Assembly (NCBI GenBank): GCA_964658305.1 | Contig: OZ210885.1 | Coordinates: forward strand, 20,150,001 to 20,214,000 | DNA from: Leptogorgia sarmentosa | Lineage: Eukaryota | Reading direction: 5' to 3' | DNA: 64,000 nucleotides | Shown here: positions 3,177 through 63,787 of the stretch, one piece after another | Position numbering within the stretch: position 1 is the first letter of the stretch | Layout of the letters: the number at the start of each line of letters is the position of its first letter | Translations under genes and position numbers: made by a program | Notes under the pieces: generated by a model | Seen by the model: only the letters and a program-made list of their open reading frames with translations | Database searches by the model: none | What the model was told of the DNA's origin: nothing

Positions 3177-6174
3177 CTAAATCTTAAGATTTTCTGTCTT
3201 CAGTTCATTAAAAATAATTGCACCTTGATATACAAAAGTTTTCCGTCCAGTTTCGGTTCTAATATTTGGGAGAACGATGTTCATATTATTTGCACGTGTG
3301 CATTTACCGTGTGATACCTTTTTGAAATAATCTTCAAAAGCCTTTGTTGCTAAACCATTTAGACACTTAAAGACTGCAAGAGCACACGATCTGTTTCTGA
3401 CTGTGTTGACACTCGGCAACTGTACAGAATTTCGTTGGCCGTTTATTATTCTTCAAGCGCGATTTTGGATTGCCTCAAACTTTTCCTGGTTGGTCGTTGA
3501 TAGCTTTAGATAAACTGTGTTACAGTGCAACATGATTGGTAGGATCATCATTTTATAGACTATTTCCGCTGTTGATGGGCTGAGATTTTGTCTTATACGA
3601 TACAGAAGTTCAACTCCTGATGTAGCTTTCTTAAGTGTTTTCTGCAGGTGTTAAATGTAGTTTAAGTTCTCGTCCATCGTAACTCCGAGATATTCATACA
3701 CTTGCGATTGTACAACGTTGGTTCCTCCAACTTTTATTTCCATTGGTCTTGATTTGGAGGTTTTGTGATGAGTACCATATACAACACACTCTGTCTTTGA
3801 ACGCTTGAGATTCATTACCAGGTTATTTTGGACAAACCAATTAGAAATCAGTTCCATGTCATGGTTAAGTTGTTCTTCGATTTTTTCACAAGTTTTATCA
3901 GCAATTATATTACAGTATCATCAGCATACAGGATAATTTCACAGCACTTCAGGTAAAGATCAATATCATTAATTAAAAGTACAAACATCAACGGACCCAA
4001 AATTGAGCCCTGAGGCATGCTGCAAGAAATTGGCTGAACTAATGATTCTGCACCATCAAATGCAACAAATTGTGTTCTGTTAAAAAGGTAGTCTTCGAAC
4101 CACAGGAGTTCTTCATTTCTGATGCAGTAAATAGTCAATTTCGACAATAGTCGGGCATGGTCAACGGTATCGAAAGCCTTCCGCAAATCAACAAATACTG
4201 CAACTGTCATTAGGCCTTTATCCATATTTTTTCTTATAGAGTCCGAGAGTTTCGTTACTGCATGTTGAGTTGATGACTTAGTTCGAAAGCCAAATTGGTT
4301 TTTCGACAGGAGATCATTTTCTTCAAGATATGCATATAGTTGTTGATGGATGACATGCTCAAACACCTTGGAAAGCACAGGCAGGATAGAAATAGGTCTA
4401 TAATTGTCCAAAATTGATCTTTCTGCAGACTTATATCTTGGTGTAATTTTTGCACATTTGTCTGCAGATGGGAAAAGGGAATTTTCCAAGCATTTGTTGA
4501 TTAGGCTTGCTAGCGGCTTAGCCAATATATTGGCACCGTCTTTTATAAATGCTGTTGGAATTTCATCGTACCCCTGAGCCTTCTTTCTGTTCAATGTCTT
4601 AATGACATCCATGACCTCTTTGCTGCTAACCCTCTGGAATTTAAAAATGCAGTTTTGGGGATTTAGTTTCCGTTGAAAATTTGAATGATCATTGTTTATC
4701 CAGGCTATATTAGTAAACTTTGGTAGAACGTTTGAATGATCATGGTTTATCCAGGCTATATTAGTAAACTTTGGTAGAACATCCTGCAAATTTTCTCCAA
4801 CATTAGTGAAGAATTTGCAGAAGCCATTCGCTACCTCTTTTGCGTTCGACGTAGGTTTGCCATCAATGTTGAAGACTTTTGAGGAGGCTTCTCCCGATTG
4901 AGTAGATTTCTTAGTGGGAAAACACCTTTTTATCTGATTCCAGAACTTCCTTGGTGTGTTGATATTTTCTCTAAAGATCTGCCTCGTATAATTCGCTCTA
5001 CTCTGTCAGATTAATCATGTTACATTATTCCTGAGGCGACGATACGTTGACCAGTCGATCTCTTTGCCAGATTTCCTCACCTTTCTGAGATGGCAATCCT
5101 GTTCGTAGATCTTTGCTTTTATGTCGTTTGTAAGCCAAGGAATGTGTAGACCACATCTTGATTAATGGGGCATGATTATCTATCACAGATTTCAAAAGAC
5201 TCTTAAAAGTATCCCACGCCGTATTAATATTAGGCTCTTGCGCTACTTTTTCCCAGTCCACATTATTTAAGTCCCTCTTGTAATCAGCTTCATTATATTT
5301 TGCGAAGTTTCTCGTGTATATTGTTCTCGGTTTAAATTTATGACTGTTCTTCTTCATTATCATTCCTACGAGGTCATGGTCACTTATGGAATTTGCATAT
5401 GTCATTGTCTTTACGATGTTTTGTTCATGAGTGGTTGCTGTGATATCAATAAGTGTGCTGGAATCTTTAGTAATCCTAGAATAAAACACCCCACTCCACC
5501 ACCAGGGCTGGTGTTCCTATCGTTTCGGATAAATGTATAACCGTCTACTTTTACCTCCTCTTTCATGATGTCACTATTCAAGTGTGTTTCAGATATTCCG
5601 AATATATCGATTCTCCCCCTCGTCTCTAGCATGTGATCAACCATATCAATCTTATTTATTAGGCCATTGACATTTTAATGAAAGATCTTTAGACCTGTAG
5701 CCTGAAGAAACGTTTTTACACCATCGTACAGTGTATTAGGAATAGCAGGCTCGTTGTTTTTGTTTCCATTTGTATTCACACAGGCTAGACAATACAACGT
5801 CTCACAGCCATGGTCAACCACGTCTATTAGACATTTTAGATGGCATTTTCTTTCACAATGAGAGCACATTTCTGAAATTTGGTTTTTCCGTATCATCTTG
5901 TTACATCTGAAGCACTTTATATTCGGACCTGGACACAGTTCAACATCTCCAGCCAGGTCAACAACAGGCTTAAATCAGAATACGAGCTTCGGGTTAACTG
6001 AACACCTCTTTCTTTCTTATAAACCCACAATGAAGTTGTAATGTGAGAGCTACATACATCTGTAGCTTCTTCACAATTAAAAGAATAACAGACTGAATTA
6101 GAACTGCCAAAAGATTGTTTCTTAGCAGTAAATAAAACAAAAATCAAGAGCGCAATATTTACCACAACCGCCAT
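3177..6174 (-). pseudogene. LINE ORF2 (PHD-like finger + AP endonuclease + reverse transcriptase), frameshifted
   Basis: RT motifs YRPISILPVLSKVFE, QFGF, DLRKAFDTVDH, PQGSILGP, YADDT (3905-4789); endonuclease ISETHL, TLID, ISDH (5025-5644); CFRC..CSHC..CHLKC..CLAC finger (~5775-5915); several stops and frameshifts. Confidence 0.9.
4680..4780. repeat. 51-bp in-frame tandem duplication inside LINE ORF2
   Basis: Encodes VLPKFTNIAWIN(H/N)DHSN twice. Confidence 0.9.
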
Positions 6175-26445: not shown

Positions 26446-29400
26446 CAATTAGTAGTTTACACCTTATATGCTACAGGCCCGACATTTAGTAATTGTCTAA
26501 TACTGAAATTTAGTAAGTGTCCAAATTTATACTTTTAATATATACATATATATAAGAGAATGTGCACACAGATGAGCAGAAGCTATATCATGTAAAGAAC
26601 CTTAATAATTAGAATTGTCAAAAGGAGGGGATGGCTGGCCTGTGGCTCACTACATATAACATCTAATAATAGATCTCCATATATTATAATTACATTCAAA
26701 CAGAAACTAATTCTTTATACTGAAGAACTTTAATAAGTTACAAAAGTCCTTGTTTCAACCTGAGAAACAAATTAATGAAACTCATTTATCTTTGAATTTT
26801 TCGAACACTAGACATACAATTTTCACTTCAAACTATACTTAAAAACATTTCATTGACAATCACAACAATGTATTGCTTGCGTTTAATATTTTTATACACT
26901 GCCATGTTTTTGCCATTTTAAAGTAAAGGTTTGATATGAGAATTAGTCTGCAACTCAAACGGAAATGCATGTGAACTTCAAGTCCTTTTTTTCATTACCT
27001 ATTCTATAGAAATTTTTTATTTTCACATATGTTATTCAGAAAACACTGATATATCATACGATGTATAGCTTGGCCTGGGGACCGAATCGTATCAATGCGT
27101 TTTTTTACTCTGAACATTGATGTAATATGATGCGTTTCTGAGGAATGTGCATGCATGTTAAATTTCAAGTCTTTTTCTCGCTTCATTCTAGCCATAGATT
27201 TTTCATTTTCCAATATATTATACATATTTCAACGATAATTCCAACAATGTATTGCTTGCCTTTAATATTTTTATACACTGCCATGTTTTTGCCATTTTAA
27301 AGTAAAGGTTTGATATGAGAATTAGTCTGCAACTCAAACGGAAATGCATGTGAACTTCAAGTCCTTTTTTTCATTACCTATTCTATAGAATTTTTTTATT
27401 TTCACATATGTTATTCAGAAAACACTGATATATCATACGATGTATAGCTTGGCCTGGGGACCGAATCATATCAATGCGTTTTTTTCCTTTGAACATTGAT
27501 GTAATATGATGCGTTTCTGAGGAATGTGCATGTTAAATTTCAAGTCTTTTTCTCGCTTCATTCTAGCCATAGATTTTTCATTTTCCAATATATTATACAT
27601 ATTTCAACGATAATTCCAACAATGTATTGCTTGCGTTTAATATTTTTATACACTGCCGTCTTTTTGCCATTTTAACGTAAAGGTTTGATATGAGAATTAG
27701 TCTGCAACTCAAACGGAAATGCATGTGAACTTCAAGTCCTTTTTTTCATTACCTATTCTATAGAATTTTTTTATTTTCACATATGTTATTCAGAAAACAC
27801 TGATATATCATACGATGTATAGCTTGGCCTGGGGACCGAATCATATCAATGTGTTTTTTTTACTTTGAAAATGAATGAAGAAAATAATCAAATTGAATCG
27901 TTTTAATAGGTAATGAAAAAAAGGACTTGAAGTTCACATGCATTTCCGTTTGAGTTGCAGACTAATTTTCATATCACACGTTTACTTTAAAATGGCAAAA
28001 ACACGGCAGTCTACAAAAATATTAAGGACAAGCAATACATTGTTGGAATTATCATTGAAATATGTATAATATATTGGAAAATGAAAAATCTATGGCTAGA
28101 ATGAAGCGAGCAAAGACTTGAAATTTAACATGCACATTCCTCAGAAACGCATCATATTACATCAATGTTCAAAGTAAAAAAAACGCATTGATATGATTCG
28201 GTCCCCAGGCCAAGCTATACATCGTATGATATATCAGTGTTTTCTGAATAACATATGTCTATAGAATAGGTAATGAAAAAAAGGACTTGAAGTTCACATG
28301 CATTTCCGTTTGAGTTGCAGACTAATTCTCATATCAAACCTTTACTTTAAAATGGCAAAAACACGGCAGTGTATAAAAATATTAAAGGCAAGCAATACAT
28401 TGTTGGAATTATCATTGAAATTTGAAATATGCATAATATATATTGGAAAATGAAAAATCTATGGCTAAAATGAAGCGAGAAAATGACTTGAAATTTAACA
28501 TGCACATTCCTCAGAAACGCATCATATTACATCAATGTTCAAAGTAAAAAAACGCATTGATATGATTCGGTCCCCAGGCCAAGCTATACATCGTATGATA
28601 TATCAGTGTTTTCTGAATAACATATGTGAAAATAAAAAATTTCTATAGAATAGGTAATGAAAAAAAAGGACTTGACTAATTCTCATATCAAACCTTTACT
28701 TTAAAATGGCAAAAACACGGCAGTGTATAAAAATATTAATAGCAAGCAATACATTGTTGGGATTGTCAATGAAATGTTTTTAAGTATAGTTTGAAGTGAA
28801 AATTGTATGTCTAGTATTCAAACAATTCGAATTAAGTGATTAAAAGAGATTTAAATCAATTTCTCAGGTTGAAACAAGGACTTTTGTAACTTATTAAAGT
28901 TCTTCAGTACAGGGTGTCTCAAAAAAAAGGTAATCGAACTTTGGCACGCCATTGTGCGTTGATTACTGGGTGTATGAACGTGATTTTTGCATGGTCATAA
29001 AGATCAAGGTCTTAGCAGTTGAATGACATATTTGTTGTACGATATGGAAGAAAATCAAGCAAATGCGAGCGTGTTGAAAAATCTCGGTGAAAAACGTATT
29101 CTTTCACCTCTGTGCCTAATTAAAGCAGTGCATAACAAAAGAAAAATGCAATTCATCACGAATGTGTCATGGTAACAAAGATGTTATCAGGATTATTAAT
29201 AATTATGCATAATCAGGTCGATTGTTGAAGGGAAGGTCGTCATCTTCGAGTCCCAGAGGGAGTTAATTTTGAATAAGTTTAGCTGCAATTCTCAGAGGTG
29301 AAAGAATGCGTTTTTCACCGAGATTTTTCAACACGCTCGCATTTGCCTGATTTTCTTCCATATCGTACAACAAATATGTCATTCAACTGCTAAGACCTTG

Positions 29401-29770
29401 ATCTTTATGACCATGCAAAAATCGCGTTCGTACACCCAGTAATTAACGCACAATGGCATGCCAAAGTTCGATTACCTTTTTTTTGAGACACCCTGTATAA
29501 AGAATTAGTTTCTGTTTGAATGTAATTATAATATATGGAGATGTTATATGTAGTGTGCCACAGGCCAGCCATCCCCTCCTTTTGACAATTCTAATTATTA
29601 AGGTTCTTTACATGATATAGCTTCTGCTCATCTGTGTGCACATTCTCTTATATATATGTATATATACGGTGATTAAAAGTATAAATTTGGACACTTACTA
29701 AATTTCAGTATTAGACACTTACTAAATGTCGGGCCTGTAGCATATAATATAAGGTGTAAACTACTAATTG
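26446..29770. mobile_element. Foldback-type non-autonomous element with TA TSD and internal ~355-380-bp tandem units
   Basis: TA|CAATTAGTAGTTTACACC ... GGTGTAAACTACTAATTG|TA. Left arm (~26446-27870; units at 26863, 27242, 27617) mirrors right arm (~27905-29770). Inserted in the inner part of the right TIR of the RAG1-like element. Confidence 0.9.
28910..29495. mobile_element. Tc1/mariner-type MITE, ~200-bp TIRs, TA TSD
   Basis: TA|CAGGGTGTCTCAAAAAAAAGG ... CCTTTTTTTTGAGACACCCTG|TA; the empty site TTCTTTATACTGAA is present in the left foldback arm (~26711-26724). Confidence 0.93.
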
Positions 29771-41620: not shown

Positions 41621-43155
41621 GTTAACATTTAACCTGTGTATATCAAGGATCTTGCATCGTCGTTGTTCAATCACTTCATCTATCTCAATAGGCTCGTCAA
41701 CGTTGCCTGGAATTTGAACCATAGGTGCGTTCAACAGACCCACAACATCACTGCCAGATCCCACTTCGACTACATCATTTTCTTGTATATATATTGCGTC
41801 GTTGTTTCGACTAGACAAAACTGTTACATTGGACTCATTATTGTTGCTACAGACTACAGAAATTTCTGCTGTATCACGGTTGCTTTCGCTTTCCTCAAAT
41901 GCCGATAACACATCATCAGCATTAAAATAATCATTTGAGTTCTGATGACTGAAAGATGATGGACTCGTCATGTATGTTGCAATGTTGGTTTGGTTGTTAG
42001 TGCTTTCAGTTTTACTTTAAAAGTGAAAAACAAAAAGAACAAATGTAAAACATGTGGATTTCTAAATAATGTTAGTGCTAGATGTACTACAGGATGTTAA
42101 AGGCCAATTTGGAAATTTTAGGGTAGTCAGTTGAAAAGCACAGTTTTCAAAGTCTTTTGATATACCCAATATACAAATTTAATGATATTGATAGAAGTAT
42201 GTACCTTATTTGAAGTGATAGCTCTTCATTGTCTTCATTTTCCTCCATCATCGGAAAACAGTGACCTAACATAAACTGCTCCTTGACCAGCCATTTTTAC
42301 AACTCTTTCAGTATGAAACTGAACTCCTTCAGCAAGCTTTGGTTTGATCAAATTGCCATAGCATGGCTATTGAATAGAAATGAATATTAATTAACAAGCT
42401 TTCAATACAGTTTGTACAGTTTTCAAACATTTTAGAATTGTTGTTGCTCCAAACTGAATTGCTATTATGATTTAGTATGTGTCAACACACACAAACAAAA
42501 TAATGCACTTTTTTAAATCTGATTTTACTTGAACAGAAGTTGTTTTCTTTTGTTCCTTTTATGATTTATTCAGCCTTAGTCCCCTCTAAATTTGTTTCAC
42601 CCCACATGTTTCATGCATGTTCAAGGCCAGGAATGACACCCAAGAAATAGCTTCTCGATCATCACTATTGGCTTCATTTTTTAAGTGTATTAAAGTCATA
42701 ATAATTTAGTGGCCTAGCTACAGTGAGTGAGAGTATATATGGCGATATTTATAATGCCACTACTGATTGCAAAGTTGAATGAAAATAACAAACATTGACA
42801 CAATATATTAGGACTATTCAAACGTTTCATGTTACCTTTACAAACTCCATACTAATTCATTGTGGAAATTGTTTATAAATTTCATCTTTCAGGGAAGCTT
42901 CATTCCACTCTTTATTAAATGGAAATTCATGGCAAACTAGTTGCCTTTCTTCCAGCTTGACACAACTGTTATGTTTTGGCACTTTTTCAAAATCAGGACC
43001 AGGAATGACAACTGAGTCTTTGTAAACAATCACTTTCTTTGGTCGTCCACACGTTCCAGTTTTTCTCGTATTTGATTTAACGACTCTGCCATTTCTTGTA
43101 GTTCTTCATGTTGGATTGCTAATTCTTTGACGACTAGCGATAGTTGGGAAACACG

Positions 43156-43440
43156 AGTAGTACTATACCGACGATATAGCGTCAGGCCCCGCTGTGCGGG
43201 GTCCCCGCGCAGCCAGACGCTATATCTCCGATACAGAGATATCACGCGAGGGATATCACGCGAGGGGGAGGGGATATCACATGAGGGATATCGTGCTAGG
43301 GATATCACGCGAGGGATATTGCGTGGGGTATCACGTGCTGTGTGCGTGGGGGATATTGCGAGGGATATCACGCGAGGGACATTGCGTGGGGTATCACGTG
43401 CTGTGTGGGTGGGGGATATTGTTGGTTCCCAACCCCCCTC
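43156..43440 (+). repeat. Polinton terminal (presumed TIR) region with GC-rich hairpin and GGGATATCACG repeats
   Basis: TATAGCGTC/GACGCTATA stem around CCCCGC/GCGGGG; multiple GGGATATCACG(C/T)G; 63-bp unit at 43298 and 43361. Confidence 0.75.
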
Positions 43441-43502
43441 TTTGTGAAGGATTTCACACCCCCTATTTGTGTTAGGTGTTGTGGGTGACGCGGAAAAGAG
43501 AA

Positions 43503-43575
43503 TCCCACGTGGTGGACTCGAACCACCAACATCCGGAGCTACAATCCGATGTTCTACCGATTGAACTACCGCGGG
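43503..43575 (-). tRNA. tRNA-Tyr (GUA), intronless, inside the Polinton
   Basis: CCCGCGG TA GTTC AATCGGTA GAAC A TCGGA TTGTAGC TCCGG ATGTT GGTGG TTCGAGT CCACC ACGTGGG A: 73-nt cloverleaf, C1:G72/A73, B box GGTTCGAGTCC, TTTT a few nt downstream; one G7:A66 mismatch. Confidence 0.85.
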
Positions 43576-43977
43576 TATACATTAATGTACATAGTAAAAT
43601 GTGTTTTAATAACAAGAAATATTTTATTTACAATGTGATTTTTATGTAGTTTTTATGTTTTATCCCCGTCGTGGGGGTTAATTCATCTTCATATTTTTGC
43701 GATTTTTTCGACAATTTCCCGGTTTACAGAGGTCTATGAAACCATTTCCACCAACGATCATCAACCACATCAGAATGAGGACTTTAAGTATTACGCAAGG
43801 TAATTTCATGATGTTTTTGAGCTCCGATTTGCTTGATTTTTTTGTAATTATGATGTAAATAAAAAACAACATGTGTTTTATAAACTGTTTTATTCATATA
43901 ACCGTATTTATTACGTGATGTTTTTTCAATAAAATGTGTTTTTTGTATGCAAATTTAGTTAAAAATACACAATTTAT

Positions 43978-44087
43978 GTGCGGTTATTTACGTGCGGTTA
44001 TTTACGTGCGGTTATTTACGTGCGGTTATTTACGTGCGGTTATTTACGTGCGGTTATTTATGTGCTGTTATTTACGTGCGTTTTTAC
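43978..44087 (+). repeat. 14-bp tandem array (GTGCGGTTATTTAC)x~7 upstream of ORF 44133
   Basis: Directly visible; followed by TATTTAAA and TCATT before the ATG. Confidence 0.92.
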
Positions 44088-44132
44088 TGTATTTAAACCC
44101 GAACGTATAGTAGTTTTATTTCATTTTACACA

Positions 44133-44984
44133 ATGGATTTCTCACGATGTGTTGTTATGAATGCGAGCGAATATGCGTGGGAGCGCATATTACCCTATAT
44201 GATGAAGAAAAGTGAAAGATACCACTGGATTACGGTTACTAAAAACGAACAGCATAAAGTGGATACCCATATTGCTGCCCATATCACTTTGTATATTTGG
44301 TGGCAAGGAAATAAAGATTTTTCCGCGACACCGTTACACTCACACATGAAAAGAGTGAAACAGAAAATAATTAGGAATAATGTTGAAACGGAGGATGTTA
44401 AGAAATGCGTTCAATCTTTTAAAATTTCGAGAAGTACACCAACCAAATGTATTCTTCTTGCTTTGATCCAATCAGTAAAGACACACGATTTGGGCGGTAG
44501 TAATATTACCCGGGAATTGGGAGAGTATTTGATGGCATTGATGAAGAAAGCAAAATACACACAAGTTTGTATAAACAAGTTTATACAAAAAGTGAACCCA
44601 CCACCACAAAGCGAGCTAACTGAACCGGAAGATATGCCACTCATACCACCGAGCGTACCATCACAAAGCGAGCCAGCAGATCGACCGCTCGAGACACCAT
44701 CACCACAACCGAGTACATCGCAAGTAGAGGGAAATCAGGACAAAAACGTTTTGACAAAAGGGGTCAAAAAGATATTGGGTGTACAGATTCTAAAGTTGAT
44801 GGGACGCGTTTTTCATGGTGTGAAAGATATGTCCGAAGATATGCGAAGTTTGGCCAAAGATGTTTGTGTTCTTAATAGCAAGATTGACAAGATAGAGGAA
44901 ACTTTTCCTAAACATTACAAGCCTACCATGTATGTGGGTAAAGATAATCCAACGAGCACAAAGTATGGGGTTACACTTTTTTAA
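44133..44984 (+). CDS. Polinton hypothetical protein (283 aa; Pro/Ser-rich linker, short coiled coil)
   Basis: Open ATG ORF in the viral gene array; no recognised domain. Confidence 0.65.
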   Translation: MDFSRCVVMNASEYAWERILPYMMKKSERYHWITVTKNEQHKVDTHIAAHITLYIWWQGNKDFSATPLHSHMKRVKQKIIRNNVETEDVKKCVQSFKISRSTPTKCILLALIQSVKTHDLGGSNITRELGEYLMALMKKAKYTQVCINKFIQKVNPPPQSELTEPEDMPLIPPSVPSQSEPADRPLETPSPQPSTSQVEGNQDKNVLTKGVKKILGVQILKLMGRVFHGVKDMSEDMRSLAKDVCVLNSKIDKIEETFPKHYKPTMYVGKDNPTSTKYGVTLF

Positions 44985-46297
44985 GACATTTATGTAATAA
45001 GACATTCAAGTAAAACATTGTATAAACATTTTTATAGTAAAAACATTGTAAACACATGAAATAACAGTTTTGAACATTTTATTTGATAATTGGTAATTGT
45101 ACAGCATTGAATACAATATTTGACTCATTACCGATTGCTGTTGTGGGCTTTATTTGTCTAAATTGTATAGTGTAACAAATATAGACCCCTGTTGTTGGGG
45201 GGTTATATTGAAATAGATGGTTGAGGAGGAATCTTTTATCGGATCGTTTCTTGTCCTTGTATTTTATTGTACCAAGGGTAGCTGCTGTTCCACTGTCTGT
45301 TTGTGTGTTTGTACCGGCTGTGTACAAAAGTAGGCGGAATTCCAATTCCAAATCATTACCGATAGTGTTATCATTGTCGAATGCATGCACTAGTAATGTT
45401 AGACGCAAAGGATCGGTGCTTACTAACGGGAAGGTTGGTGTGGGGTATCCGGTAATGGGGGTTTTAGGGGAACACCACATTGAGGTTGTTTGCGCTGGTG
45501 ATGACATAAATAAACTGTCCATTACAGTATTATTGTACGCGTTTGTGATATAATGTAGTATAGTTTTTGCCATATGTAGTTGAGTGGAAGTTAGCAGGTT
45601 TGCTGTGGCTATTTTTAGTTTGCCATTAGCGAGAATAGTTCCATCTTGTTGTTCGAATCCTGCGAGAAGAGTATTTCCTCTCATGATACTTTTGAATTTC
45701 TGCCTTTCAAAGTCTTTGTGATAGGGAAAATGAAGTCTGTTTGTGAGATTTGCGCTGGAATAATTTGCAGTGGATAACTGTAGAAATGTAAATCCCCCGT
45801 AAACGCTTATTGCCATGTTCCTTTCAGGTAAGTCGGCAGTTGTGTACAAAATTTCAAAAACAAATTGTGATTTAGGGTTAGCGGTAGGATTTGCGTTTTT
45901 GTCAACTCTTCCCAAATAGTATTCGTACGTTTTTCCGTTGTGGTCCACCGTTCCTATTCGCCTTACAGAAGCACTTGAGTTAACATTTGAACCGTAGTTT
46001 GTGAACATGAGTACGGTTTTTGTCACTCCGCTGTTGATGTGATCTCGGATAGCAAATATTACTCCGTATGACTCCGCTTGAGAGTAAGGCCCGGTTCAAA
46101 CGTCGAGTATAATGCTTGTCGAATATAATTCTAAATATAGTCGACTTTAATTTTTGTAATTTGACATTCGATTTAGACGTCGAATTTAATAAATAGTCGC
46201 ATATATAATCGCACATGCAGTCTAATAGCGAAAAGCAATGACATTGGTCAGCAGATTATAATTCGCAGAAATAAGGATCTATTGTTGAGTTGCAAAA

Positions 46298-47563
46298 ATG
46301 GCAAAGGTGAAAGATCCAGGTAATATGATTTTATATCGAGTTATTCGGGAGTGCAGGCGGCGTAGAAAGATCATTCGACGAACTCTGCAATACGCTATGA
46401 TGCGGAGAAAACGAGTATTGCAATTGTCTTTACTTCTGCTTCTGTTGATCACTTCCATAAAAGCTGTTCCAGTTGATCGATCCTGCCGCAGAGTATCTCG
46501 AAATTGTGGTTGGTGGGAGAAAGTATGGAAAACCTATTCAGAAGCCCGCTTTAAAAAAACCTTTTGTGTATCTCGTGCTACTTTTATTTACTTACTTTCC
46601 AAAATAAGGCATAAGCTGGAACGTCACGTTGTCTATATCGGCTTGGCAGAGGTAGTTACTACTATACCATTGCCGAGATGTCTGGGCTTGGGATATCAAC
46701 TGTTTGCTCCATCACACAAGAAGTATCACAAGCCATTGTTGACTGTTTATGGGACGGGACTGTATCGAAATATATGCCAAAATCAACTGAAGATTTCAAA
46801 GAGAAAATGATCGATATGGATGTAATGTGGCAATTCCCCAGCTGCTGGGCAGCAATGGACGGATGTCATATTCCAATCAAATGCCCGGCCGGTGGAAAGA
46901 TTGCATGCAAGGAGTATCACAATTTTAAAAATTTTTACTCAATAGTGTTAATGGGATTGGTAGATTCCCATTACAGGTTTGTGTGGGCAAGTTGTGGCTA
47001 CCCTGGCAATTCTCATGATGCTATCATTTTTGAGTCCACGGAACTTTGCTCAAAGATCAAAGAAGGCAATTGCATACCAGAAATTAAAAATAATATTGGG
47101 GGTGTTAATGTTTTGCCTCTAATTATTGCTGACTCAGCATTTTCCCTATCAAAGTGGATGATGAAGCCTTATGGTGAAGCTGTGCTGTCTGAAAAGCAAA
47201 GGTACTTTAATTACCGCTTGAGCCGTGCTCGCATGGTGACAGAAGGGGCCTATGGGCAGTTGAAGGGTCACTGGCGCATCCTCTTGAGAAAGTGTGAAAG
47301 TACAAATGAAGAGGTCAGAAGGTGTGCACTGTGTAGTATTGCACAATGTTTGCATTGAGAGAGGCGATACCATTTCCCAAAAGCTAGACTTAACAACTGA
47401 TCCTTTAACCCAACAGAGAAGAGATCCAGAAGTAGTAAGATTACTGGATATGCGGGCTTGTAAAAGCACTACAGATACAAAATGTTCTCCAGCAGCTAAG
47501 AATGTTCGAAACATTATTGCAAACAAACTATGGGCAGAAAAGGAAAGTGGAAAAGTTGATTAA
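46298..47563 (+). pseudogene. Harbinger (HARBI1-like) DDE transposase, frameshifted
   Basis: FKKTFCVSRATF; AMDGCHIP; PGNSHDA; IADSAF; RARMVTEGAYGQLK; VLHNVC in another frame. Confidence 0.9.
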
Positions 47564-47956
47564 AAACAAGTTAATGTTTTGTATTTGATATTACTTTATT
47601 ATGAAGAACTCAATGAAATGTAACACTACAGAGTATGCATCATGTTTATGGCTATTTGCAAGCGTGCATTCTGCAATGGACACATAAAATGCTAATTGAT
47701 TTGCACAAAACATACAAAATCTACAGTGAAACATGAAGGTCTGAAATAAACATGTTCGAAGTTGGCAGTTAAAGGTAGCTTGCAAACAGCAGTAAGTGCT
47801 TCTGCAGTGGTACGGAAAACAGCTTTAAGATACTGTACATAACTTGAAAAAACTCAACATTTGGTGCATGCCCATAATTATTATTGTTATTTCTTTCTAT
47901 ATGACGTATTTCCAAAATACTTAAAAATGTTTCAATTCAGCACCCTGTAAATAACT

Positions 47957-49459
47957 TCATAATTTGTGATAAGTTTTTTCCTCTAATTGTAAATGCTCTT
48001 CATGTGATTGAGACGCAGATGAGATTAAGGAACTGCTTGAGCATGATGAGGATGGCCTAGTGGTCAAGCGGGAAGAAGGACTGAAAAACATACTTGATTC
48101 ACCTTGCCATGGTTGATATGATTGGAATGACCTACCACATCCCTGACCTGTGACATGGTTTGCCACTTGCTGATACTCATTTCCATGCACTTGCCAATAT
48201 GTCTGCGGTGTGGGACCAGAAGCATGTTGCTGTGGTGGATGATGTGTTGCTGATAAGAACTTATCTACAAGCTTTGCTTCATGCTCCATTGACTTTTGTA
48301 ATTCTTCACGCATGAAAGATATCATCTCTTTGGCAGGGTCATTTGATATTGTTTCTTTTATAAGCCCAATTACCTCAGCAATGGTATCTTTGTTTGAAGA
48401 CTTCTTTTTAGTTGATTTAATTGGTACAAAAGGTTTTTCTGAGTTTTCCTCTTCATGTGAGTCATTTTCAGTATTACTTCCAGCAATTGTGCTTGTTGTT
48501 GCAGAAGGCTCTACAGCTTTCTCAGGGTTACATGAATCCCTTGTTTGAACTAGTGGGAACAACTTATTGAACCAAGCACCAAATCCTTTATCTTCTTGGA
48601 ACCTTTTAATGCCTGATCCAGTCTTAATAGTTAGTGCTGCAAACTTACAATCACTCACACATTTCTTAAACTTTGTGCGTAGCTGAGCAGCAGTAAAGTC
48701 AATATCCTCATCTCTGGCAGAACACCTATCCTTTAACTCTTTGAGGATTTTCTCATATATGAGGCCATTTTGCTGATTCTTTGTGTTTGTAGTATTCATC
48801 ATTTGTAACAATGTCTACAAAGTCGTCTAGTGCTTCAGTGCTCCATCGGGTTTTTTGCGTCCCTTTTTCTTCTTTTCAGTTTTCGGTTTCTCACATGTAG
48901 CTTTTTTAGTTCTATATAATATTATAATTAAATGAAAACAGTTTGTAGTAAGACAACCAGAAACCATTAGACAATATAAAAAATGCTTAATAGGGGGAGT
49001 AATTATTAAATTTTGAAATTAAATTGCAGCAATTTTAAAATTTATTTTATATGGTGCTATACATCTCACATACTTTTATTATAGTTTCATATTCTCTATG
49101 GTGAGAAATATATAGAAAGAAAGTGAGCAGTGAGATGAAGTAAACTCGTGTCTAAAAGACCAATGAAGTATGTACCTTTTTCGCTTTTGCTTTGGTTCAC
49201 TTGGGTCAGCATCGTCAGGTGTATCGCTAGTTTCTTTATCCTCTTCCCAATGGTTATTTTTATCAATAATAGAATTGCCTATTTGACACGTTTGGCAACG
49301 GCCAACAGATTTTCCCATTACCCATCCAGCTGTCTCGTCATCTTCTTCAAACTCTGAACATTTGTTGCAGATGGGCGAAGTACAGTCTATACACTGGTAT
49401 GTTGTTAAAATAGAACAAGAACAACAGTGTGCTTTATCTTCTGTGCATTTACCCGCCAT
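47957..49459 (-). pseudogene. Harbinger partner protein (Myb/SANT-trihelix-like) with Cys-rich first exon
   Basis: RWSTEALDD..IYEKI..EL..FTAAQLRTKFKK..WFNKL; exon 1 starts MAGKCTEDK with CxxC pairs; frameshift near 48815. Confidence 0.78.
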
Positions 49460-50361
49460 CTTGAAAATTTTATGAGGGACAGGACCCGTATGTGGAATTC
49501 TGCGCATGTCATTCAGCTTCGTGGAACGTTCGTGGCGCCTAATATAATTTCTCATAATTTATGCATTTTATTCGGCGCATGAAATATTTGATGTTTGAAT
49601 CAACGTCGCCCTACTGCCGAATTATTCGACCGGGACAGTCAAATAAAACGGCATGGTCGCATTTAATTCGAATAGTCGAATTTAATTAATTCATACGTCG
49701 AATTTTTCATGCACTTAATTTTTTAATTGTATTCGGCACATGAAATATTCGACGTTTGAACCGGGCCTAATTTGCAACAATGGAGATTCCTGTTGAGTCT
49801 ACAGCAGGGTCTGAGTTTTGGGTTATTTCAATAGGAGCACGAGAACCCAAAATCGGAACTGTTTCGCTTGTGGCACTTTTTGCTACAACGAGATTTAATC
49901 CTCGATGTCCATTGTAAGGGGCATCAGTGCCCGAATCCTCAAATTCAAAGGTTTGAAAAGCGTGTGGGTATGTTATTTGTCCGAAGTTTTTATTCACCAA
50001 AATAAGCTGCTTTTTTGTGGTGGCGTCGAAATCACCAACATCTCCTTTATCTCCTTTCTGTCCTTGTGGTCCTGCAGGCCCTGTAGGTCCCATGGGGCCT
50101 GTGTTTCCAACTGGCCCTGTGTTTCCTGTATGTCCTGTGGGTCCGATATCTCCTTTGTCTCCTTTAGGTCCCTGGTTTCCTGGATCTCCCTTTGGTCCTT
50201 TTTGTCCACATCCCAATCACGTAATTTTTGTTATAATGACACGATGTTACAATGATGATTCAGGATCTCAAGTAAACAGGATAACGCTATTCTCCTGAAA
50301 AACTTAAGGGAAAGCACATAAAAACTATTTTTAAATGTAGTTGTTCATTCATACAGTAAAC

Positions 50362-50940: not shown

Positions 50941-53445
50941 ATGGAGGCATACTTATCTAGTGTTTACCATAACCCAAAACGATCTGGGGGATATGGTGGG
51001 GTAGAACGATTATACAATGACGTGTCATTGTCGGAGGTGTTGACGAGTTGTGGCAGATGGATTTAGCTGACATGCAGCCTTTGGCGAGTGAAAACGATGG
51101 ATTCCGATACCTGCTCGTATGCATTGATGTATTCTCAAAATTTGCATGGATTATACCCTTAAAAACTAAAACAGGACCTGCTTTGGTAGAAGCTTTTAAA
51201 GTGATTTTGGAATCGGGACAAAAACCTCAGAAAATTCAAACGGATCAGGGAACAGAAATTTTCAATAGACCCTTTAAAGCACTAATAAAACAAGAAGACA
51301 TACAACTTTATAATACTTACAATGAAACAAAAGCATTGGTTGTGGAGCGCCTCATTCGTACTTTGAAAACAAAAATGTGGCGCTTTTTTACAGCTAAGAA
51401 AACACGTAGGTACATTGACATGCTGGACAAATTAGCGTACTCATATAATCATAGCAAACATCGTAGCATTAAGAAAAAATCTGTAAATGTCACCATAGAA
51501 AACGAGCAAGAAGTATGGCACACCCTATACGGTGATCGCCCATCACGTAAGAAAAAAGTAAAGTATAAGTTCTTTATAGGTGATCAGGTATGCATAAGTA
51601 AAATGAAGCGTAAATTTGAAAAGGGTTATCTTCCTAATTTTTCAAAAGAAATTTTTACCGTAAGCAAACAAATACCTCGATATCCAGCAGTGTATAAACT
51701 AAAAGACTATGATCAAGAGGAACTTGACGAGACATTTTACAAAGAGGAGTTATTAAAGTGTATATGAAATGAAAATTTCGAATTTTTTTTTCTTACATAA
51801 TCTGAAAATTTCATCTTTTGCGAGCATATTAATACCAATCTTGTTGAAAACTTCGAACCAGAAGTTTGCGAATTTTACGTTCAAAGTTGGGCTGTGAGAC
51901 ATGTTACCTGATGAAATTCCTGCGCGGCCAAAAGGTCGTTATGACGTATGCAGTGTGACACAGTGCGCTTTTCCTATATGTAAATACTATAAACAATGCT
52001 AACTCAACTGTGTTAAACTTGAAATTTCTTATAGTTGAGGAAAATTCAGACATATCTGTGTCGAGTATATCCGATTCTATGGCTCAAATAACGATAGGAA
52101 TACGACAAGTCATGTTAAATGGACTGCAGAAATACGAACGTAATCGTAGATTTCGCTTATACAGATCAACATAATTTATGCTGTTGAGATCTTACTTGTG
52201 GCGTATGGTGAATATTTTTGAGAAAAAAAGGGTTATTCCAGACAACTGGATACAATTAAGATTTATACAGTCCGCGTGTACTAGACTGGAGAGCCAAAAC
52301 AAAATCGAAGTAAACGAAAAGTATACCGGAACGCAATATTGTATACCACATATACACCTAGGAAATATGAGTACCTCTTTGCCGCACGACATATTAAAAT
52401 AGTTTAAATGCTTCAGTTTAGCTTTCATTTGTGTTATGATTTCATCTATTTGCGGTTGCTGAAACGTGCCGTATATATATCCTGTTTAATGCGCGCAATT
52501 TATTCCTTTGCCACTGGAATACCAAAAGGGCAGTTGCCAATGGAACACGGCCTGTCCGCAAAACGATTAACCAAGCTGGTACATTGTCCATCTTTATTAA
52601 GAATAATCTGAACAATAGAATACAACCCTGATAGAATACAAGTCTTGGAATCGCACGTTTTGCTTTTTGGTTCAAGATAATTTCCCCTGTCTTATCAGGT
52701 ATAAAAGCCTTTGGCCTGCACTGACTGCAGTCAGCTGTATTTTATACCTTGTTCGTAACTGCTGGGTGCGTCATGAGACGATATACCCAGTGCGTATAAT
52801 TTTTGGCCATGCATTCGAAAATCAAGAATCTCTTTACAAAGTCTCTCTATAGCATTACTTTCTCACTTCAAAGGTTATTCCGCAAAATATAGACCACCAA
52901 TCCCGCCGGTTTTGTTGTGGTTTTGTCTACCTTATAGTTTTAATACCGTAACTGGCTCCACCTGTATATTGTACAACAGACGATGGTTTAACAACGTCCT
53001 TGTTATTTGTTGCTTGTTCTGTATCTCTCTGAGATTAAAATCTTCCATTACTGAACACGTTTCGCATTTAGAAGAAGAAATATACAAGCTAATGTCTTGT
53101 GATCGGTGAATTTTGTTGGTATTTATTATGTCTTACTACGGTGTGTCACACTGCCCATGTCTTATAGCCCAACTTTGAACGTAAAATTCACAAACTTCTC
53201 GTTCGAAATTTTCTACAAGATTGGTATCAAAATGCTCGGGAAAGATGGAATTTTCAGATCATGTAAAAAAAAAAAATTCGAAATTTTCATTTCATATACA
53301 CTTTAAGGAAGATGATGTGTATGAAGTAGAAGAGGTTTTAAAAAAGAAAGGTAGAGGAAAGAATGAGCAATACTTTGTAAAATGGTTAGGATATCCATCG
53401 AAATTCAATTCATGGATACCTGCATCTCAATTAAAAAATATTTAA
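50941..53445 (+). pseudogene. Polinton RVE integrase with C-terminal chromodomain, interrupted
   Basis: WQMDLADM, IDVFSK, IQTDQGTE, VERLIRTLK, FEKGYLPNFSKEIF; chromodomain YEVEEVL..YFVKWLGYPSKFNSWI after the 51757-53302 insertion. Confidence 0.92.
51757..53302. mobile_element. Non-autonomous Kolobok-type element, TTAA TSD, ~150-bp TIRs
   Basis: TTAA|AGTGTATATGAAATGAAAATTTCGAA ... TTCGAAATTTTCATTTCATATACACT|TTAA; terminus resembles the 20753 Kolobok TIR. Confidence 0.9.
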
Positions 53446-54850: not shown

Positions 54851-56268
54851 ATGAGTTACGTACACAATAATTCAAAACGTTGTGGTAAAACAGAAGTTGA
54901 ATTGTTTAACATCCCACCCACACAAACAAGTTTGGAAAAAAGTCGGTGGGTTGAATACCACCCTCTTTCAAGTGTTGAAAATGATGAGAGACCCATTACA
55001 TTTCTGGTTACCGGTGACGATGACTATATTGACCTGTCCAAAACAATTTTGGTTGTTGAGGGAAAAGTGGTAAAGGCTAACGGTGATAATTTAGACGGTA
55101 ATGAGCAAGCGAGTATTGCCCCAGTCAACAACTTTTTACACACTGGATTTAAACAAGTTGATGTGTACATGAATGGGAAACAAGTAACACCTGCCATCGG
55201 AACCTACCCCTACCGTGCCTATTTTGAAACATTGTTGAATTATGATGTTACTGCCAAACAATCACAGTTTACGTCAGCACTGTACTACAAGGATACCCCC
55301 GGAGAAATGGATAATGCAGGAAGTCTTCCCTCAGAGAAAACATTGACCTACGTCACAGGACATAGCAGCAGCGGATCACCGCAAACCAACAATAAAAAAA
55401 TGATGGTACCTGGAAGTGGAAATCAAGGTTTTGCCAAAAACATCAGTTCATACGGGATGGAAAGCTTCTCACTACGGAGGGACCCCTTTTTGTTGACGCG
55501 TTTATGAGTGATCGTCTCTTATTGGATAAGGTGAATGTTAAATTGATTCTCAACCGAAGTGCCGATCAGTTCTGTCTGATTGACAAAAACACAGTTCCTA
55601 TTGGTGCCAAAGTGAAGTTAACCGATGTTATCCTTAAAGTACGTAAAGTCAAAGTGAGCCAAGCGGTTCAAGCAGCTCATGCAGCTGCACTAAAGAGGGT
55701 ACCAGCTATTTACCCTACACGTCGTGTTGAATGCAAGGCGTTTGTTGTACCTGGAAACATTCCATCTATAAGAAAAGATAACATTTTTACGGGTACCATA
55801 CCAAAAACATCTGTGTGTGGCCTTGTGGAGGCTACGGCTTTCAATGGAAACTATGGAAAAAACCCGTTTAATTTCAAAAATTATGATGTAACGTCGGTGA
55901 CACTTACAGTAAACGGAGAAGAGTTACCCTTCAAACAATTCAATCTGAATTACGAAAACAACAAAGAAAATTACACGCAAGCATTTGGTACTTTGTTCTC
56001 CGGTACCGGAAAGATGAATTACAACACAGGACTCAATATATCCCGAGAAGATTACCCTAAAGGGTACACCATTTATGGCTTTGATCTAACCCCTGACATG
56101 TGTGGTTCCTCTCCCTATTTTAATGCTGTACAACACGGTGCACTGATAATTGACATCACGTTCACCACTGCACCAACCACTGCTCTTGCTTTGGTATGCT
56201 ACGGAGATTTTGAAAATATTATACAAATTGATGGTGACAGAAATGTAATGTATGACATGTCGTCATGA
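54851..56268 (+). pseudogene. Double jelly-roll major capsid protein, one frameshift (~55435)
   Basis: ELFNIPPTQTS..WVEYHP; YIDLSKT; PVNNFLH; YPYRAYFETLL; KNPFNF; GYTIYGFDLTPD. Confidence 0.92.
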
Positions 56269-56843
56269 ATACCCAACAAATTGAGCGTGCCTTGGAACAT
56301 AATTCAAAAACATCAAAGAGGTTTTGTGGAGTGTTTCCTGCTGACCAACTACCAAAATCCTTAAGCACATTCCCCTGTGGGTTTGTGGCTAATACGGACC
56401 CATCTACGAAACCGGGAACGCATTGGGTGGTATTTTACTTTCCCACATATAATACAGGAGAATTTTTTGACAGTTATGGACAAACACCTGAACATTACAA
56501 CGAATCTTTTAAAACTTATTTTAAACCTTATGAATGGAAACATAATACACAAAAATTACAAAGTTCATGGACTGAAGTGTGTGGGCAATACTGTATTTTT
56601 TACTTATATCAGAGAGCTTGTGGTCGTAATATGAATGAAATTGTAAATATGTTTGGAAATAATGCGTTGTTGAACGATAAAAACGTATCTTGTTATGTTA
56701 AAAAGTATTTTGATATTACTAACAAACCCATTTGTGGGCTTAGTCAATGTTGTAAAAGATTGCTTCAAATAAAAAATCAGCTTTTCAAAAAGTGTTTTAT
56801 TCATTTTAACAATAATTATTTACAAAAAAGTTATCCTTTATAA
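56265..56843 (+). CDS. Adenain-like cysteine (maturation) protease
   Basis: F.GVFPAD.LP; NTD....PGTHW; FFDSYG; LQ....VCGQYC (His-Asp-Cys triad). Confidence 0.92.
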   Translation: MNTQQIERALEHNSKTSKRFCGVFPADQLPKSLSTFPCGFVANTDPSTKPGTHWVVFYFPTYNTGEFFDSYGQTPEHYNESFKTYFKPYEWKHNTQKLQSSWTEVCGQYCIFYLYQRACGRNMNEIVNMFGNNALLNDKNVSCYVKKYFDITNKPICGLSQCCKRLLQIKNQLFKKCFIHFNNNYLQKSYPL

Positions 56844-58564: not shown

Positions 58565-59193
58565 TTACTTTTTTATATACACAATTTGTCTTTCTCCAGG
58601 TAAAATATTTGTACGTAATCGTATATTTTCCGGAGTTTGTGGATGACAATCAATAAGTAAATAACTATGTGGTTGTTTCGTAGCATCTTGAAAGCAATCC
58701 ACCAAAAAATTGCTTTGTCTAGGATACATTTGTTTAGCTAGTGTTGCAATCGCAAGAGAATCACGTGGATTTTTAAACACAAAAATGTAATGACAATTTA
58801 AGCTAATGGTTCTCGATAATTTTCCTGGTGGAAATAGGTTCTGTGTGAGATATAATACAGAAATGCCTTTATGGTGAGAACCACACGTAAATAATCGGAA
58901 ACACGTTGATCTTTTGAACATTCTCCCATAAGATCATCCAATACCACAATAGAATTGTCATGTCCTCGGGTTAACTCATCCAAATTTGACGGAAATCCTT
59001 CGACCAAATCCACATTTTGTAGTTCTTCAAACTCTTTCTGATACTCCCCATAACAATAAATGATCTTTGTAGGAACGGGGTTAAATAATTCGTTTGAATG
59101 TTGTAGTAATTTATGAACCAAAAATGATTTTCCACTTTGACTTTGTCCCGACACGTAAAAATTAGCTGGTACTTTGAACCTTACATCCATCAC
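58565..59193 (-). pseudogene. A32/FtsK-type packaging ATPase, one frameshift
   Basis: Walker A GQSQSGKS, Walker B VVLDD, GSHH, YLTQN, RTISLN, FKNPRD. Confidence 0.92.
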
Positions 59194-60257: not shown

Positions 60258-63200
60258 TTAAAACCCATAGGGTAATGTTTCATAATTGTCTTTAATAACA
60301 CGTTTGTCATATACAATCCGATAATCCTTTTTCATCTTTTTTGTTACAATGTTTTTTTCCTTTTTATTTCTCGTAATTTAAAAAGGAATATTGATCGTGA
60401 CTTTCGCTTCAGCATCACATTCTGTATGTAAGTACACAAGCGAGCGAATAACGTCGGGGTTTATCTTTTGCAGTGTTGTATGATTCAAGGTAATTCCCCG
60501 TACTTTTGTTCCGACTTTCCTTTGGCTGTATGATATGCGTAATTCTTTGGTCCTCCCGATACAAACGTAGTAATATGGTCTCCGTCTAACTCGTCGGTTA
60601 AATCACCGAGATAATTTCCTAAAGGTGGTTCTGGTTCACCGGGCTTTGACACATATATAACCGAATCCGTATCGTAGTAAAGTACGCGTTCCTGTAGCAT
60701 GTCCAATAAACCGTAAAGTTTCAGACGGGCGTACGCCATGGTAAAAGCAGCAACAACCACATTCGCTTTGCTGTTTGGTTCCTTAAAATCACCAACGCTC
60801 TTGTATTGTACCTCAATCATGTTATCGCTAACTATTCGGGCATTGGACACTTCAAATTCGTCGGAGGTCAAAAGGTCAAAGTACTTTTGCGGTTCCGTTA
60901 TCATTTCTGTCTTGCCTAAATTTCCGCGCTGTCCAAATTTACCTAAACAAAAAATACAATTACCCAACAATATTATAAATATGAAAAGCAATATATTACT
61001 TACCCCAAAACAAGTTTAGCATGAGTTTGGCTAAAGTGCGCAAACCAGGATTGTGTGTAATCTTTTCCGGATCCAGTACAATTCCTTCATGCTCCAAATA
61101 TTCAGCAACGTATGCTTGCTTCTGTTCGGGTGTTGTGCGATCTTTCGGGTAACCGCTGGCTTCCTGTTTGATCTTTAAAAAGGTGTCCACATAGTTTTTA
61201 AATAACTCGTCGGATTGCTCCGGAAAATGCCACACCTCGTGTAGCTGTAGAATTCGGTACCCTTTTTCTATTGCCTTTAGTAACTCCACATGACACCACG
61301 TACCAAGAATAGCTCTCTCTCTTCATCAGAGTGGGTGCATGTAGTTTGGTTAGTGGTATCAACGCACGCTTTGCATAATGGGAAGGTTAATTTACCAGGA
61401 GTACGATAAGGTAAAACAGGATGAAACAATCCTCGGGGTGGTAACACAGTGCATTTTATAAGACCAAAGTATGCTGAAATGTCCTGAAAATTTTCAGTGA
61501 TAATTTCTGGGTGTCCTACTACCATTCTCGTTGACTTGTTACACCAAGGATACAAACTTGTAAAATCCACGTATTTTATTTTCTCTCCGTTCTCACATTT
61601 GTGAAATAACTGCGGCATTTGTGCAACCACCAAAAAATGCATCACGTGGCACATACGGCAGCATGCTTTACGATTTTCGAGACTCATTTCATTCGGATTA
61701 TAGTACGGTTCACACGGAATAGGCCCAATATAATTCTCATTTTCTTTCTTATTAAACAAATGAGGAAAATATCCTTTATGTAATTCATCCAATCCAAATG
61801 TCTTTGGAAATTTAGCAAGACCCATAGGAATAAAATTTAACGAGTCAATGAATCGTATGTTAAGCATAGGAACTGTCAGTGTTATAATCTTGGCTCCGCT
61901 CATGATAACGTCGTACTTCACTCCATTTTCGCTCAAATAATTTTGAATAAAATAACCGTCATATCCCTGAAAGTTATGAGCTAGGAACACGCAATTCTTA
62001 TGCTCTTTTGTAAACATTTACAAAAATCTAAATTTGTATTTTCTCCAGAAAAACACCATTCATCCCCCATTTCATTTTGTACAATGCATAGATTTGGTTC
62101 GTGAATTCCATTCTCTTGCTGACACTCATAGTCAAAGAAGAACAACTGATCATAGCTTTCCTTCTCCCCCTCTTTTTCCTTTGGTTTTTTCATGTAACAA
62201 TGATGTACATCCTTATTACCAACAAGCTCTCCCCACACGTTTTGCATTTTGTTTGTTGGCATAGATGATCTGGTAGGTGGTGAATTCTCATTGATTTTCC
62301 ACATTTCAAACACTTTTTCATTTGTTGACATACAGATTGACCATTTTCTATAGGGTTTTTATGTCTATCAAAACACGATTGGCTCTTAAACACCCGTCTA
62401 CAATCCGTACAGCTTCTTGGATCAATCCATGAACAATCTAAACCACGACACATTTTGCACTGGCTATCACATAAATGATCCACTGTATGATCATAAGGTT
62501 TTCTGCACATGTGGCAAAAATAACCCCGACTTAAAAATGCAGGCATTGACGTAATAACATCATAGTGGTTATTATGTAAGTACAAATAAATACATTTCGC
62601 TTCCGTAGCAACGGGTTGTTATGGGTGTATAATTGTATCTCCGGCGTCCATCGAAACAATGTTTATTTCATACCCCGTCAAATATTTCTGGAACTGTTTC
62701 ACCTCGGAAATCCCGCACGATCCTAAAGGGACGCCCGCCTTTTCATGTAAATCCTGTGCTGCTTTCCCCTGCGCAGGCCTACGGGAATCCGCTAATAACT
62801 TGTACCTTTTGTCTTTATCAATTTTTGCAATAGCAACCACCAAAGCTCGGGCTAAACATAAATTGTCTTTGTTCTTAATGACCACCATCGATCTCTTATG
62901 TAAATAACTCAGTAAATCAATATCATTACGTCCTTTTCTTCTTCCGCTACCGTTTGGCATCTCGACGTGTACAATATCAACAATAGCTGACTCGTTTAAA
63001 CGTAACTCCTGTTTGGATTGTACAACACGTTCAATTTGAGAAAAAACATGTTCAGGTGTCAGACGTGAAACAGGCATAAACGGTAGTGATATTGGTTTAT
63101 CCAACTGATCCGTACGCAAAACAAATCGAATCAAATCGCTTTCCTGCATTCCTTCCGTAACATCGGTAAGTAGTTGCTCAAAAATTTGTTGTGTACGTTC

Positions 63201-63557
63201 ATACTCTCGAACAAGATCAAGATCTTCCAAATCATTAAAGTGTACAGAATAATCCACGGCTGTTGTACGATACTTTTTGGCTTTTACTTGACGAACTTCA
63301 TTAATTGTATAAAACTTTTCCGGTGTTCTAACTTCGTCATCTTCGGCTTTTCTTTTTTTCCCTCCATATTGTATATCGGTTTTGGGATCAGGTACATCCC
63401 AAATCCATGAGTCGTTCGTATCTCCCCATTCCCACTCAGCATTTTGCGGTTCTGTCATAACAATATCTTACTGTTCTTCGACATTTGTTTTCGGATCGGG
63501 TACATTCCAAATCCATGCGTCGTTTGTATCTTCCCACTGCCACTCATCACGCTCCAT
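60258..63557 (-). pseudogene. Protein-primed family B DNA polymerase (pPolB) with N-terminal TP/OTU-like region; frameshifts, deletion, one intron
   Basis: FFDYEC (ExoI), AHNFQGYD (ExoII), FIDSLNF, KGYFPH, YVDFTSLYP (A), KLMLNLFWG|KFGQ (B, intron 61003-60943), YYDTDS (C), GPKNY; DNLCLARAL and HYD in the N-terminal region. Confidence 0.95.
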
Positions 63558-63687: not shown

Positions 63688-63787
63688 TAAATAATCGCAC
63701 CCCCTTTTAATAAATAATCGCACCCCCTTTTAATAAATAATTGCACCCCCTTTTAATAAATAATCGCACCCCCTTTTAATAAATAAT
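63688..63787. repeat. 23-bp tandem array (TAAATAATCGCACCCCCTTTTAA)x4 upstream of pPolB
   Basis: Directly visible; its core is a variant reverse complement of the 14-bp array at 43978. Confidence 0.9.

Follow-up and report, generated by a model that had tools for sequence, protein, structure and literature searches.

Why would a mobile element of an animal carry a tRNA gene close to its end, and what would the tRNA do there? The question arises at a locus of the cnidarian Leptogorgia sarmentosa, where an intronless tRNA-Tyr(GUA) gene lies just inside the terminus of a Polinton. We analysed the 64,000 nucleotides of contig OZ210885.1 (assembly GCA_964658305.1) from position 20,150,001 to 20,214,000 of the forward strand. 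This whole stretch is called the window, and all coordinates below are positions in it. An earlier note had described the gene as encoding a virus-borne Pol III RNA and had offered three functions for it: a supplement to translation, a decoy of the adenovirus VA RNA type, or a chromatin barrier bound by TFIIIC. Our analysis favours the first. Judging from its pattern of change, the gene appears to be cargo that a Polinton family with many copies has conserved, and we consider it fairly probable that it encodes a working tRNA-Tyr, which would add to the host pool when the element is expressed.

Identification of the tRNA-Tyr gene

With default settings, ARAGORN calls a single tRNA in the 64-kb window, a tRNA-Tyr(gta) of 73 nt spanning exactly 43503..43575 on the minus strand. 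The same span scores 58.7 bits with the Rfam model RF00005 (cut-off 29, E 4e-10), the full model being covered, which settles the covariance-model check proposed in the earlier note in favour of the gene. No call is made by ARAGORN in 30 locally shuffled windows, and a relaxed run on the window returns, among the matches listed, only a poor intron-split candidate.

The cloverleaf has 20 standard pairs out of 21, two of them G-U; the exception is 7:66, which is unpaired. The bases for the tertiary contacts U8-A14, G18-U55, G19-C56 and U54-A58 are present. The gene has the C1:G72 pair, A73, the anticodon GUA (43540..43542, minus strand, from the ARAGORN call) and a short variable loop, and it does not encode CCA. 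Its 73 nt are contiguous, i.e. there is no intron between positions 37 and 38, and the anticodon loop contains U32, G37 and C38.

Inside the gene, tRNA positions 8-19 (43557..43568, minus strand) match the A-box consensus. The B box is found at tRNA positions 52-62 (43514..43524, minus strand), and its sequence, GGTTCGANTCC, is the single perfect match in the whole window. A run of four T (43494..43497, minus strand), the likely Pol III terminator, begins 6 nt past A73. By sequence match, the A box, the B box and the oligo(T) make up a complete predicted type-2 Pol III layout.

The lowest-energy fold of the sequence is not the cloverleaf (-26.6 versus -24.6 kcal/mol; z -1.8). Unmodified tRNAs commonly have a minimum-energy fold other than the cloverleaf, and because the tRNA was unmodified in the prediction, the mismatch says little.

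By its structure, identity bases and promoter match, 43503-43575 is a real eukaryotic-type tRNA-Tyr gene. The complete intronless cloverleaf with Tyr identity bases, the two internal boxes and the T4 run, as described in the earlier note, are all confirmed. Directly upstream of the gene, at 43576-43590, there is a perfect palindrome of 12 bases.

The Polinton that carries the gene

The element was read inward from its likely left terminus, an (AGT)2 motif at 43156..43161 (plus strand), and its right end lies beyond the window. According to a survey of vertebrate elements, 5'-(AGT)2 is the most frequent end motif of Mavericks (PMC8097293, partial text). The distance from the AGTAGT motif at 43156 to the 3' end of the tRNA gene is 348 bp, placing the gene 348-420 bp inside the element, in agreement with the roughly 350 bp first noted. 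The terminus is followed by a GC-rich subterminal region with short degenerate repeats (43162..43470, plus strand, repeat family D5), which likely lies within the terminal inverted repeat and is weakly conserved between copies.

On the interior side, a repeat search identifies a 14-bp tandem array (43958..44097, plus strand) upstream of the first Polinton ORF (44133..44984, plus strand), which encodes 283 aa, has nine relatives and matches no Pfam family. A collagen-repeat, fibre-like gene (45079..50216, minus strand; Collagen PF01391 at 49770-50216; 38 relatives) is split by a nested PIF/Harbinger transposon. The transposon occupies 46088-49767 and has a DDE_Tnp_4 domain at 46615-47355, a second ORF, inverted ends and a TAA duplication. 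An rve integrase with a chromodomain follows (51021..53445, plus strand; PF00665 E 2e-13, PF00385 E 9e-11), parted by an insertion (inverted repeat I13). This insertion, at 51753-53306, is flanked by inverted repeats of 151 nt and separates the integrase core from the chromodomain.

The major capsid protein gene is present in two reading frames (54851..56268, plus strand; 1142 relatives). It is followed by a likely maturation cysteine protease (56265..56843, plus strand), recognised by a weak match to S273R (E 0.025) and without a Pfam family. On the minus strand there are a likely packaging ATPase in two reading frames (58565..59190), with weak AAA matches (E 0.005) and a Walker A motif in the translation, and a protein-primed polymerase (PolB) in pieces (60485..63458; PF03175 E 3e-22 on 61280-62017). 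The named relatives of the capsid protein are octocorals, two among the 120 relatives listed, at 57-64%, and the closer relatives are unnamed; the named ones point to an anthozoan as the likely host. For a natural relative that is 75% identical, the predicted fold resembles double jelly-roll capsids (pLDDT 62; Foldseek E 6e-13), and on this model the carrier has a predicted double jelly-roll major capsid protein.

The protein-primed PolB and the rve integrase are both present in the carrier and both broken. The copy in the window is a dead, decayed Polinton: its polymerase, capsid and ATPase genes are fragmented, and its collagen-repeat gene and integrase are interrupted.

Two further observations concern repeats. 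The 14-bp array (43978-44059, plus strand) and a 23-bp array before the polymerase (63689-63769, minus strand) have an 11-base motif in common, present six times in the first and three times in the second and absent from the rest of the window; the match extends over 56 nt (E 2e-8). The motif is likely a common promoter element of the two inward-facing end genes. The last 540 bases of the window resemble the left end in these promoter-like arrays only. Elsewhere, at 26464-29747, a palindromic block consists of tandem units of about 370 bp in opposite orientation, with arms that are 90-99% complementary, and is probably a foldback-type element.

Recurrence of the gene and its pattern of change

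Contigs of 15 public sequencing runs were compared with the window, and seven of the runs, from two studies and under two species labels, contain the stretch or a part of it. Runs X1 to X3 may be the source sample, while X7 has the second species label. Over 91 bases around the tRNA gene we aligned 28 contigs from X2, four from X5 and nine from X7, contigs less than 80% alike being left out, which favours finding a conserved core. The summed depth over the gene core in X2 is about 3700-4300, versus 50-90 for single long contigs. When 42600-45200 was profiled in four runs, the tRNA bins had a depth of 2050-3660 in X1 and X2, the terminal repeats one of 136-548 and the first ORF one of 257-2263; the gene has about 1 to 2 times the depth of the first ORF, where depth is not to be equated with copy number.

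The contig that runs across the host junction stops inside the tRNA-Tyr gene, at a branch of the assembly graph, and in X1, X2 and X4 a joint at 43615-43694 connects the 5' end of the gene to the interior of a diverged element copy. Many copies of the gene clearly exist, and it has been preserved better than either of its flanks.

Among the contigs aligned over the 91 bases, differences are listed at tRNA positions 24, 26 and 50 only, in a table that omits differences near contig ends. Positions 27-49, the anticodon arm and variable loop, have no listed difference, even though in some contigs 11-14 of roughly 70 bases have changed. The loose contig ends, which are unphased variant pieces, contain further versions of the acceptor strands, three on the 5' side and four on the 3' side, with changes at positions 4/5 and 68/69. 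In all of these acceptor variants A73 and the C-G pairs 1-3 are retained, and in X2 one 5' variant is exactly complementary to one 3' variant. The change at position 24 has a matching change at position 11. Close behind the gene, most loose ends of other copies have a run of 4-6 T, and one has only three.

These paired changes suggest covariation within the tRNA-Tyr of the Polinton family, and the pattern of change is as expected for a selected, working tRNA and not for a drifting pseudogene or a SINE. Given that the copy in the window is decayed, selection would therefore have acted in active lineages. The earlier view of the gene as a virus-borne Pol III tRNA, rather than a SINE or a one-off pseudogene, is supported by these data, i.e. 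many copies, further samples under two species labels, an anticodon arm that is held and an acceptor stem that varies on both strands.

Some contigs show other rearrangements. One X2 contig passes from 43632 back to 43493, a sign that the tRNA unit may stand twice in tandem in some copy of the Polinton. Several contigs cease to align in the D loop, at 43556, as would fit one extra base near tRNA position 20; the length around this position varies in real tRNAs.

Comparison with other tRNA-Tyr genes

The element gene resembles the nuclear tRNA-Tyr(GUA) of animals in C1:G72, A73, GUA, G37, the short variable loop and the type-2 promoter (PMC9023262; PMC12239594, partial text), and C1=G72 is a mark of Tyr (PMC9023262). 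It differs from the animal genes in the lack of an intron, in having U32/C38 instead of C32/A38, and in its stems, where 14 of 21 bases match the motifs conserved in human, mouse and silkworm (PMC9023262, Table 1).

We also compared the gene with viral tRNAs. A pattern for intronless short-arm Tyr genes matches nine viral contigs (L044-L052); all nine genes have C1:G72 and A73 and lack an intron, and three of the contigs have a giant-virus capsid gene among the ORFs scanned. The base at position 38, which the pattern left free, is U or C in eight of the nine, and is A in animal tRNA-Tyr. A second pattern, fixed on the loop of the element itself, matches 29 metagenome loci, among which 10 different cores occur; as U32/C38 was fixed in the pattern, the count gives no frequency for this loop. 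The tRNA-Tyr is the sole tRNA at 22 of the 29 loci, nine adjoin a giant-virus capsid gene (65 ORFs scanned from the metagenome and viral loci), and Polinton genes were found at none of them. On the giant-virus contigs L059, L061, L063, L065, L067, L068, L075 and L079 a lone intronless tRNA-Tyr lies within about 1-3 kb of the major capsid gene.

At the level of sequence the likeness is low. The element tRNA is identical at 43-53 of 73 positions to 16 aligned sequences, taken from 39. The highest value, 53/73, belongs to a tRNA from an unrelated viral cluster of 22 tRNAs (L003), and the other 15 are at 43-52/73. Across these 16 tRNAs and the element gene 13 of the 21 pairs have changed on both sides, a count that concerns unrelated viral tRNAs chosen from the 39 rather than members of the Polinton family. 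A pattern made from the anticodon arm of the Polinton family has no match in the viral contigs, and searches with a piece of the capsid and with the alignments of the capsid and fibre-like proteins gave no confirmed locus of related Polinton DNA in viral contigs, nor was one confirmed in genome contigs. No prokaryotic source was seen, since a looser anticodon-arm pattern has no match in 185,579 prokaryote genomes. An 18-base D-arm pattern was discarded: its 43 viral loci are generic phage tRNAs, and one of the 43 is a Tyr.

Prasinoviruses carry Tyr-GUA (PMC3673656, partial text). Taken together, the intronless tRNA-Tyr(GUA) of Nucleocytoviricota is like the element gene in its 73-nt short-arm build, C1:G72, A73, frequent occurrence as the lone tRNA and frequent non-A38, and the U32/C38 loop is found in both (prasinoviruses, PMC3673656, partial text; L044-L081). 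The differences are the low identity (43-52/73 for the 15 aligned) and the carriers, which have no Polinton genes at the 29 loci. We conclude that the element tRNA-Tyr resembles giant-virus tRNA-Tyr in its build, and that this would be compatible with a transferred gene, with an old retrocopy and with convergence.

Possible functions of the tRNA

If the gene supplements translation, host TFIIIC and Pol III would transcribe it in the nucleus from its internal boxes, RNase P and RNase Z would trim the transcript, the host would add CCA, and the host tyrosyl-tRNA synthetase would charge the tRNA. We infer transcription, trimming, CCA addition and charging from established pathways. The charged tRNA would then read UAC and UAU. 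More tentatively, as the gene has no intron, the supply of Tyr-tRNA might be independent of splicing by TSEN, CLP1 and ligase, which could matter if infection disturbs splicing or if tyrosine-rich viral proteins raise demand. Splicing is needed for animal tRNA-Tyr (PMC4090602, partial text), herpesvirus infection leads to TSEN/CLP1-dependent fragments of pre-tRNA-Tyr (PMC12239594, partial text), and the tRNAs of chloroviruses are charged in vivo (PMC7019647, partial text).

The codon usage of the element was compared with this proposal. Tyr codons make up 4.6% of the Polinton ORFs versus 3.3% of the other ORFs of the window (177/3880 versus 87/2634, p 0.012). This excess is the largest among the 20 amino acids, the p value is uncorrected, and the comparison set consists of transposon fragments and not of host genes. 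In the virion genes TAC is used in 39 of 68 cases versus 94 of 283 for the other NNY codons (odds ratio 2.14, p 4e-4). The TAC preference is not counted as support, because the odds ratio is much the same, 2.06 and 1.87, in two of the five controls read out of frame. It is also not obvious what benefit a single additional tRNA-Tyr gene would bring, as the animal host already has many.

Another possible function of the tRNA is counter-defence, an explanation to which we give a small probability. The working tRNA would then be kept since the host destroys its own tRNA-Tyr, or stops maturing it, during infection, and the altered loop (U32, C38, no intron) would escape. By analogy, an intronless tRNA-Tyr in the style of giant viruses might sustain tyrosine decoding while the intron-containing tRNA-Tyr of the cnidarian host is being cut or is no longer spliced. 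The simple codon-demand signal does not survive controls, A38 is missing in eight of the nine viral intronless tRNA-Tyr genes and the element gene has C38, all of which speaks for this explanation. Mouse pre-tRNA-Tyr is cut at or near the splice junction in herpesvirus infection (PMC12239594, partial text), and the tRNA-Tyr of phage T5 rescues from retron-Eco7 (PMC11555353, partial text). However, these analogies stem from mice and bacteria, and the loop bases may be merely inherited. We know of no defence in cnidarians that targets tRNA-Tyr.

Less probable again is a role at the level of DNA, in which a site bound by TFIIIC and Pol III near the element end acts as a chromatin barrier or end-opener and the RNA is incidental. 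The subterminal position and the perfect B box would suit such a role, as would the report that a yeast tRNA-Leu gene can serve as a barrier when it lacks the intron but not when it contains one (PMC4090602, partial text). However, a barrier requires the boxes only, and the copies keep the anticodon arm, A73 and a paired acceptor stem. Barrier activity alone cannot explain the conservation of the anticodon arm and may be a side effect.

We regard it as quite improbable that the RNA is a decoy like VA RNA or the TMERs, or a source of tRNA fragments, instead of a translating tRNA. Adenoviruses are relatives of Polintons, but the T4 run 6 nt past A73 leaves no room for a hairpin body, no Rfam family besides tRNA reaches the cut-off in 43000-64000, and the gene has the canonical 73-nt build with full Tyr identity.

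The explanation with the lowest probability, slightly below that of the decoy, is a neutral passenger: a retrocopied host tRNA, or the head of a SINE, would have inserted into an ancestor of the Polinton and multiplied with it. Intron loss is expected from reverse transcription of a mature tRNA, and the window copy has one unpaired acceptor position in a decayed carrier, but CCA, poly(A), a SINE body and a target-site duplication are all absent (the longest word common to the 60-nt flanks is six low-complexity bases), the stems depart from the animal consensus and yet remain paired, and the neighbouring DNA on both sides has been preserved less well than the gene. A SINE or retropseudogene was rejected on the same lack of a body, tail and flanking duplication, together with the joint of the gene to the element interior in X1, X2 and X4.

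Among the three functions first offered, the supplement to translation therefore fits best, the decoy fits poorly, and the barrier falls short as the sole explanation. A selected, translation-grade tRNA would hardly be of use to an element that only cuts and pastes itself, but would be well suited to bursts of capsid synthesis. The tRNA-Tyr may therefore be an indirect sign of a viral phase in animal Polintons. Few nuclear viruses of animals are known to carry translating tRNAs. As intronless tRNA-Tyr is common to many giant viruses, the supply or the splicing of tRNA-Tyr might be a recurring bottleneck for eukaryotic DNA viruses. If counter-defence were the true function, the gene would be an animal parallel to the phage tRNAs that defeat tRNA-destroying defences and would indicate that these Polintons go through a true viral cycle; it might also have been exchanged with Nucleocytoviricota. 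The tRNA would also provide a small, distinctive RNA marker for tRNA sequencing in corals, since it differs from the animal tRNA-Tyr consensus in all four stems and in the loop.

Relation to known systems

The VA RNA of adenoviruses and the TMERs of murine gammaherpesvirus have a long hairpin or microRNA body. The element gene lacks such a body and is a canonical cloverleaf that ends at T4. What they have in common is a type-2 Pol III promoter in a nuclear DNA virus of animals (for TMERs: PMC12239594, partial text).

The MELD viruses of non-animal eukaryotes are, like the Polinton, linear dsDNA elements of middle size, and have predicted tRNAs (PMC8502044, partial text). In the available part of that source, tRNAs receive a single mention, for elements with other replicases, and the animal adintoviruses are not said to carry them. 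The word "tRNA" is absent from the main texts of surveys of Polintons in corals (PMC11131425), vertebrates (PMC8097293) and nematodes (PMC10748475). No report of tRNA genes in animal Polintons was found in the literature searched, a scope outside which most subscription papers and the Repbase annotations fall.

The closest likeness is to polinton-like viruses and virophages. For these, 558 tRNAs have been reported in about 8300 genomes (PMC12220804, partial text), and among virophages 18 high-quality and 12 further sequences carry tRNAs (PMC6905037, partial text). The supplement file of the former nowhere contains "tRNA-Tyr", and Tyr is absent from the isotypes listed in the available part of the latter. 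They share with our element a small dsDNA genome that integrates, the same broad lineage and a single or a few tRNA genes, and the roles proposed for them in these partial texts are the same, codon supply and countering depletion. They differ in that the genomes described in these texts come from protists and environmental contigs, whereas the carrier here is the rve/pPolB Polinton of an animal. The novelty implied in the earlier note was thus overstated, since both polinton-like viruses and virophages are on record as carriers of tRNA genes (PMC12220804 and PMC6905037, partial texts) and intronless tRNA-Tyr is common on giant-virus contigs. A tRNA cargo is already known from the polinton-like viruses and virophages of protists; what appears to be new is the animal host, the Tyr isotype and the predicted independence from splicing.
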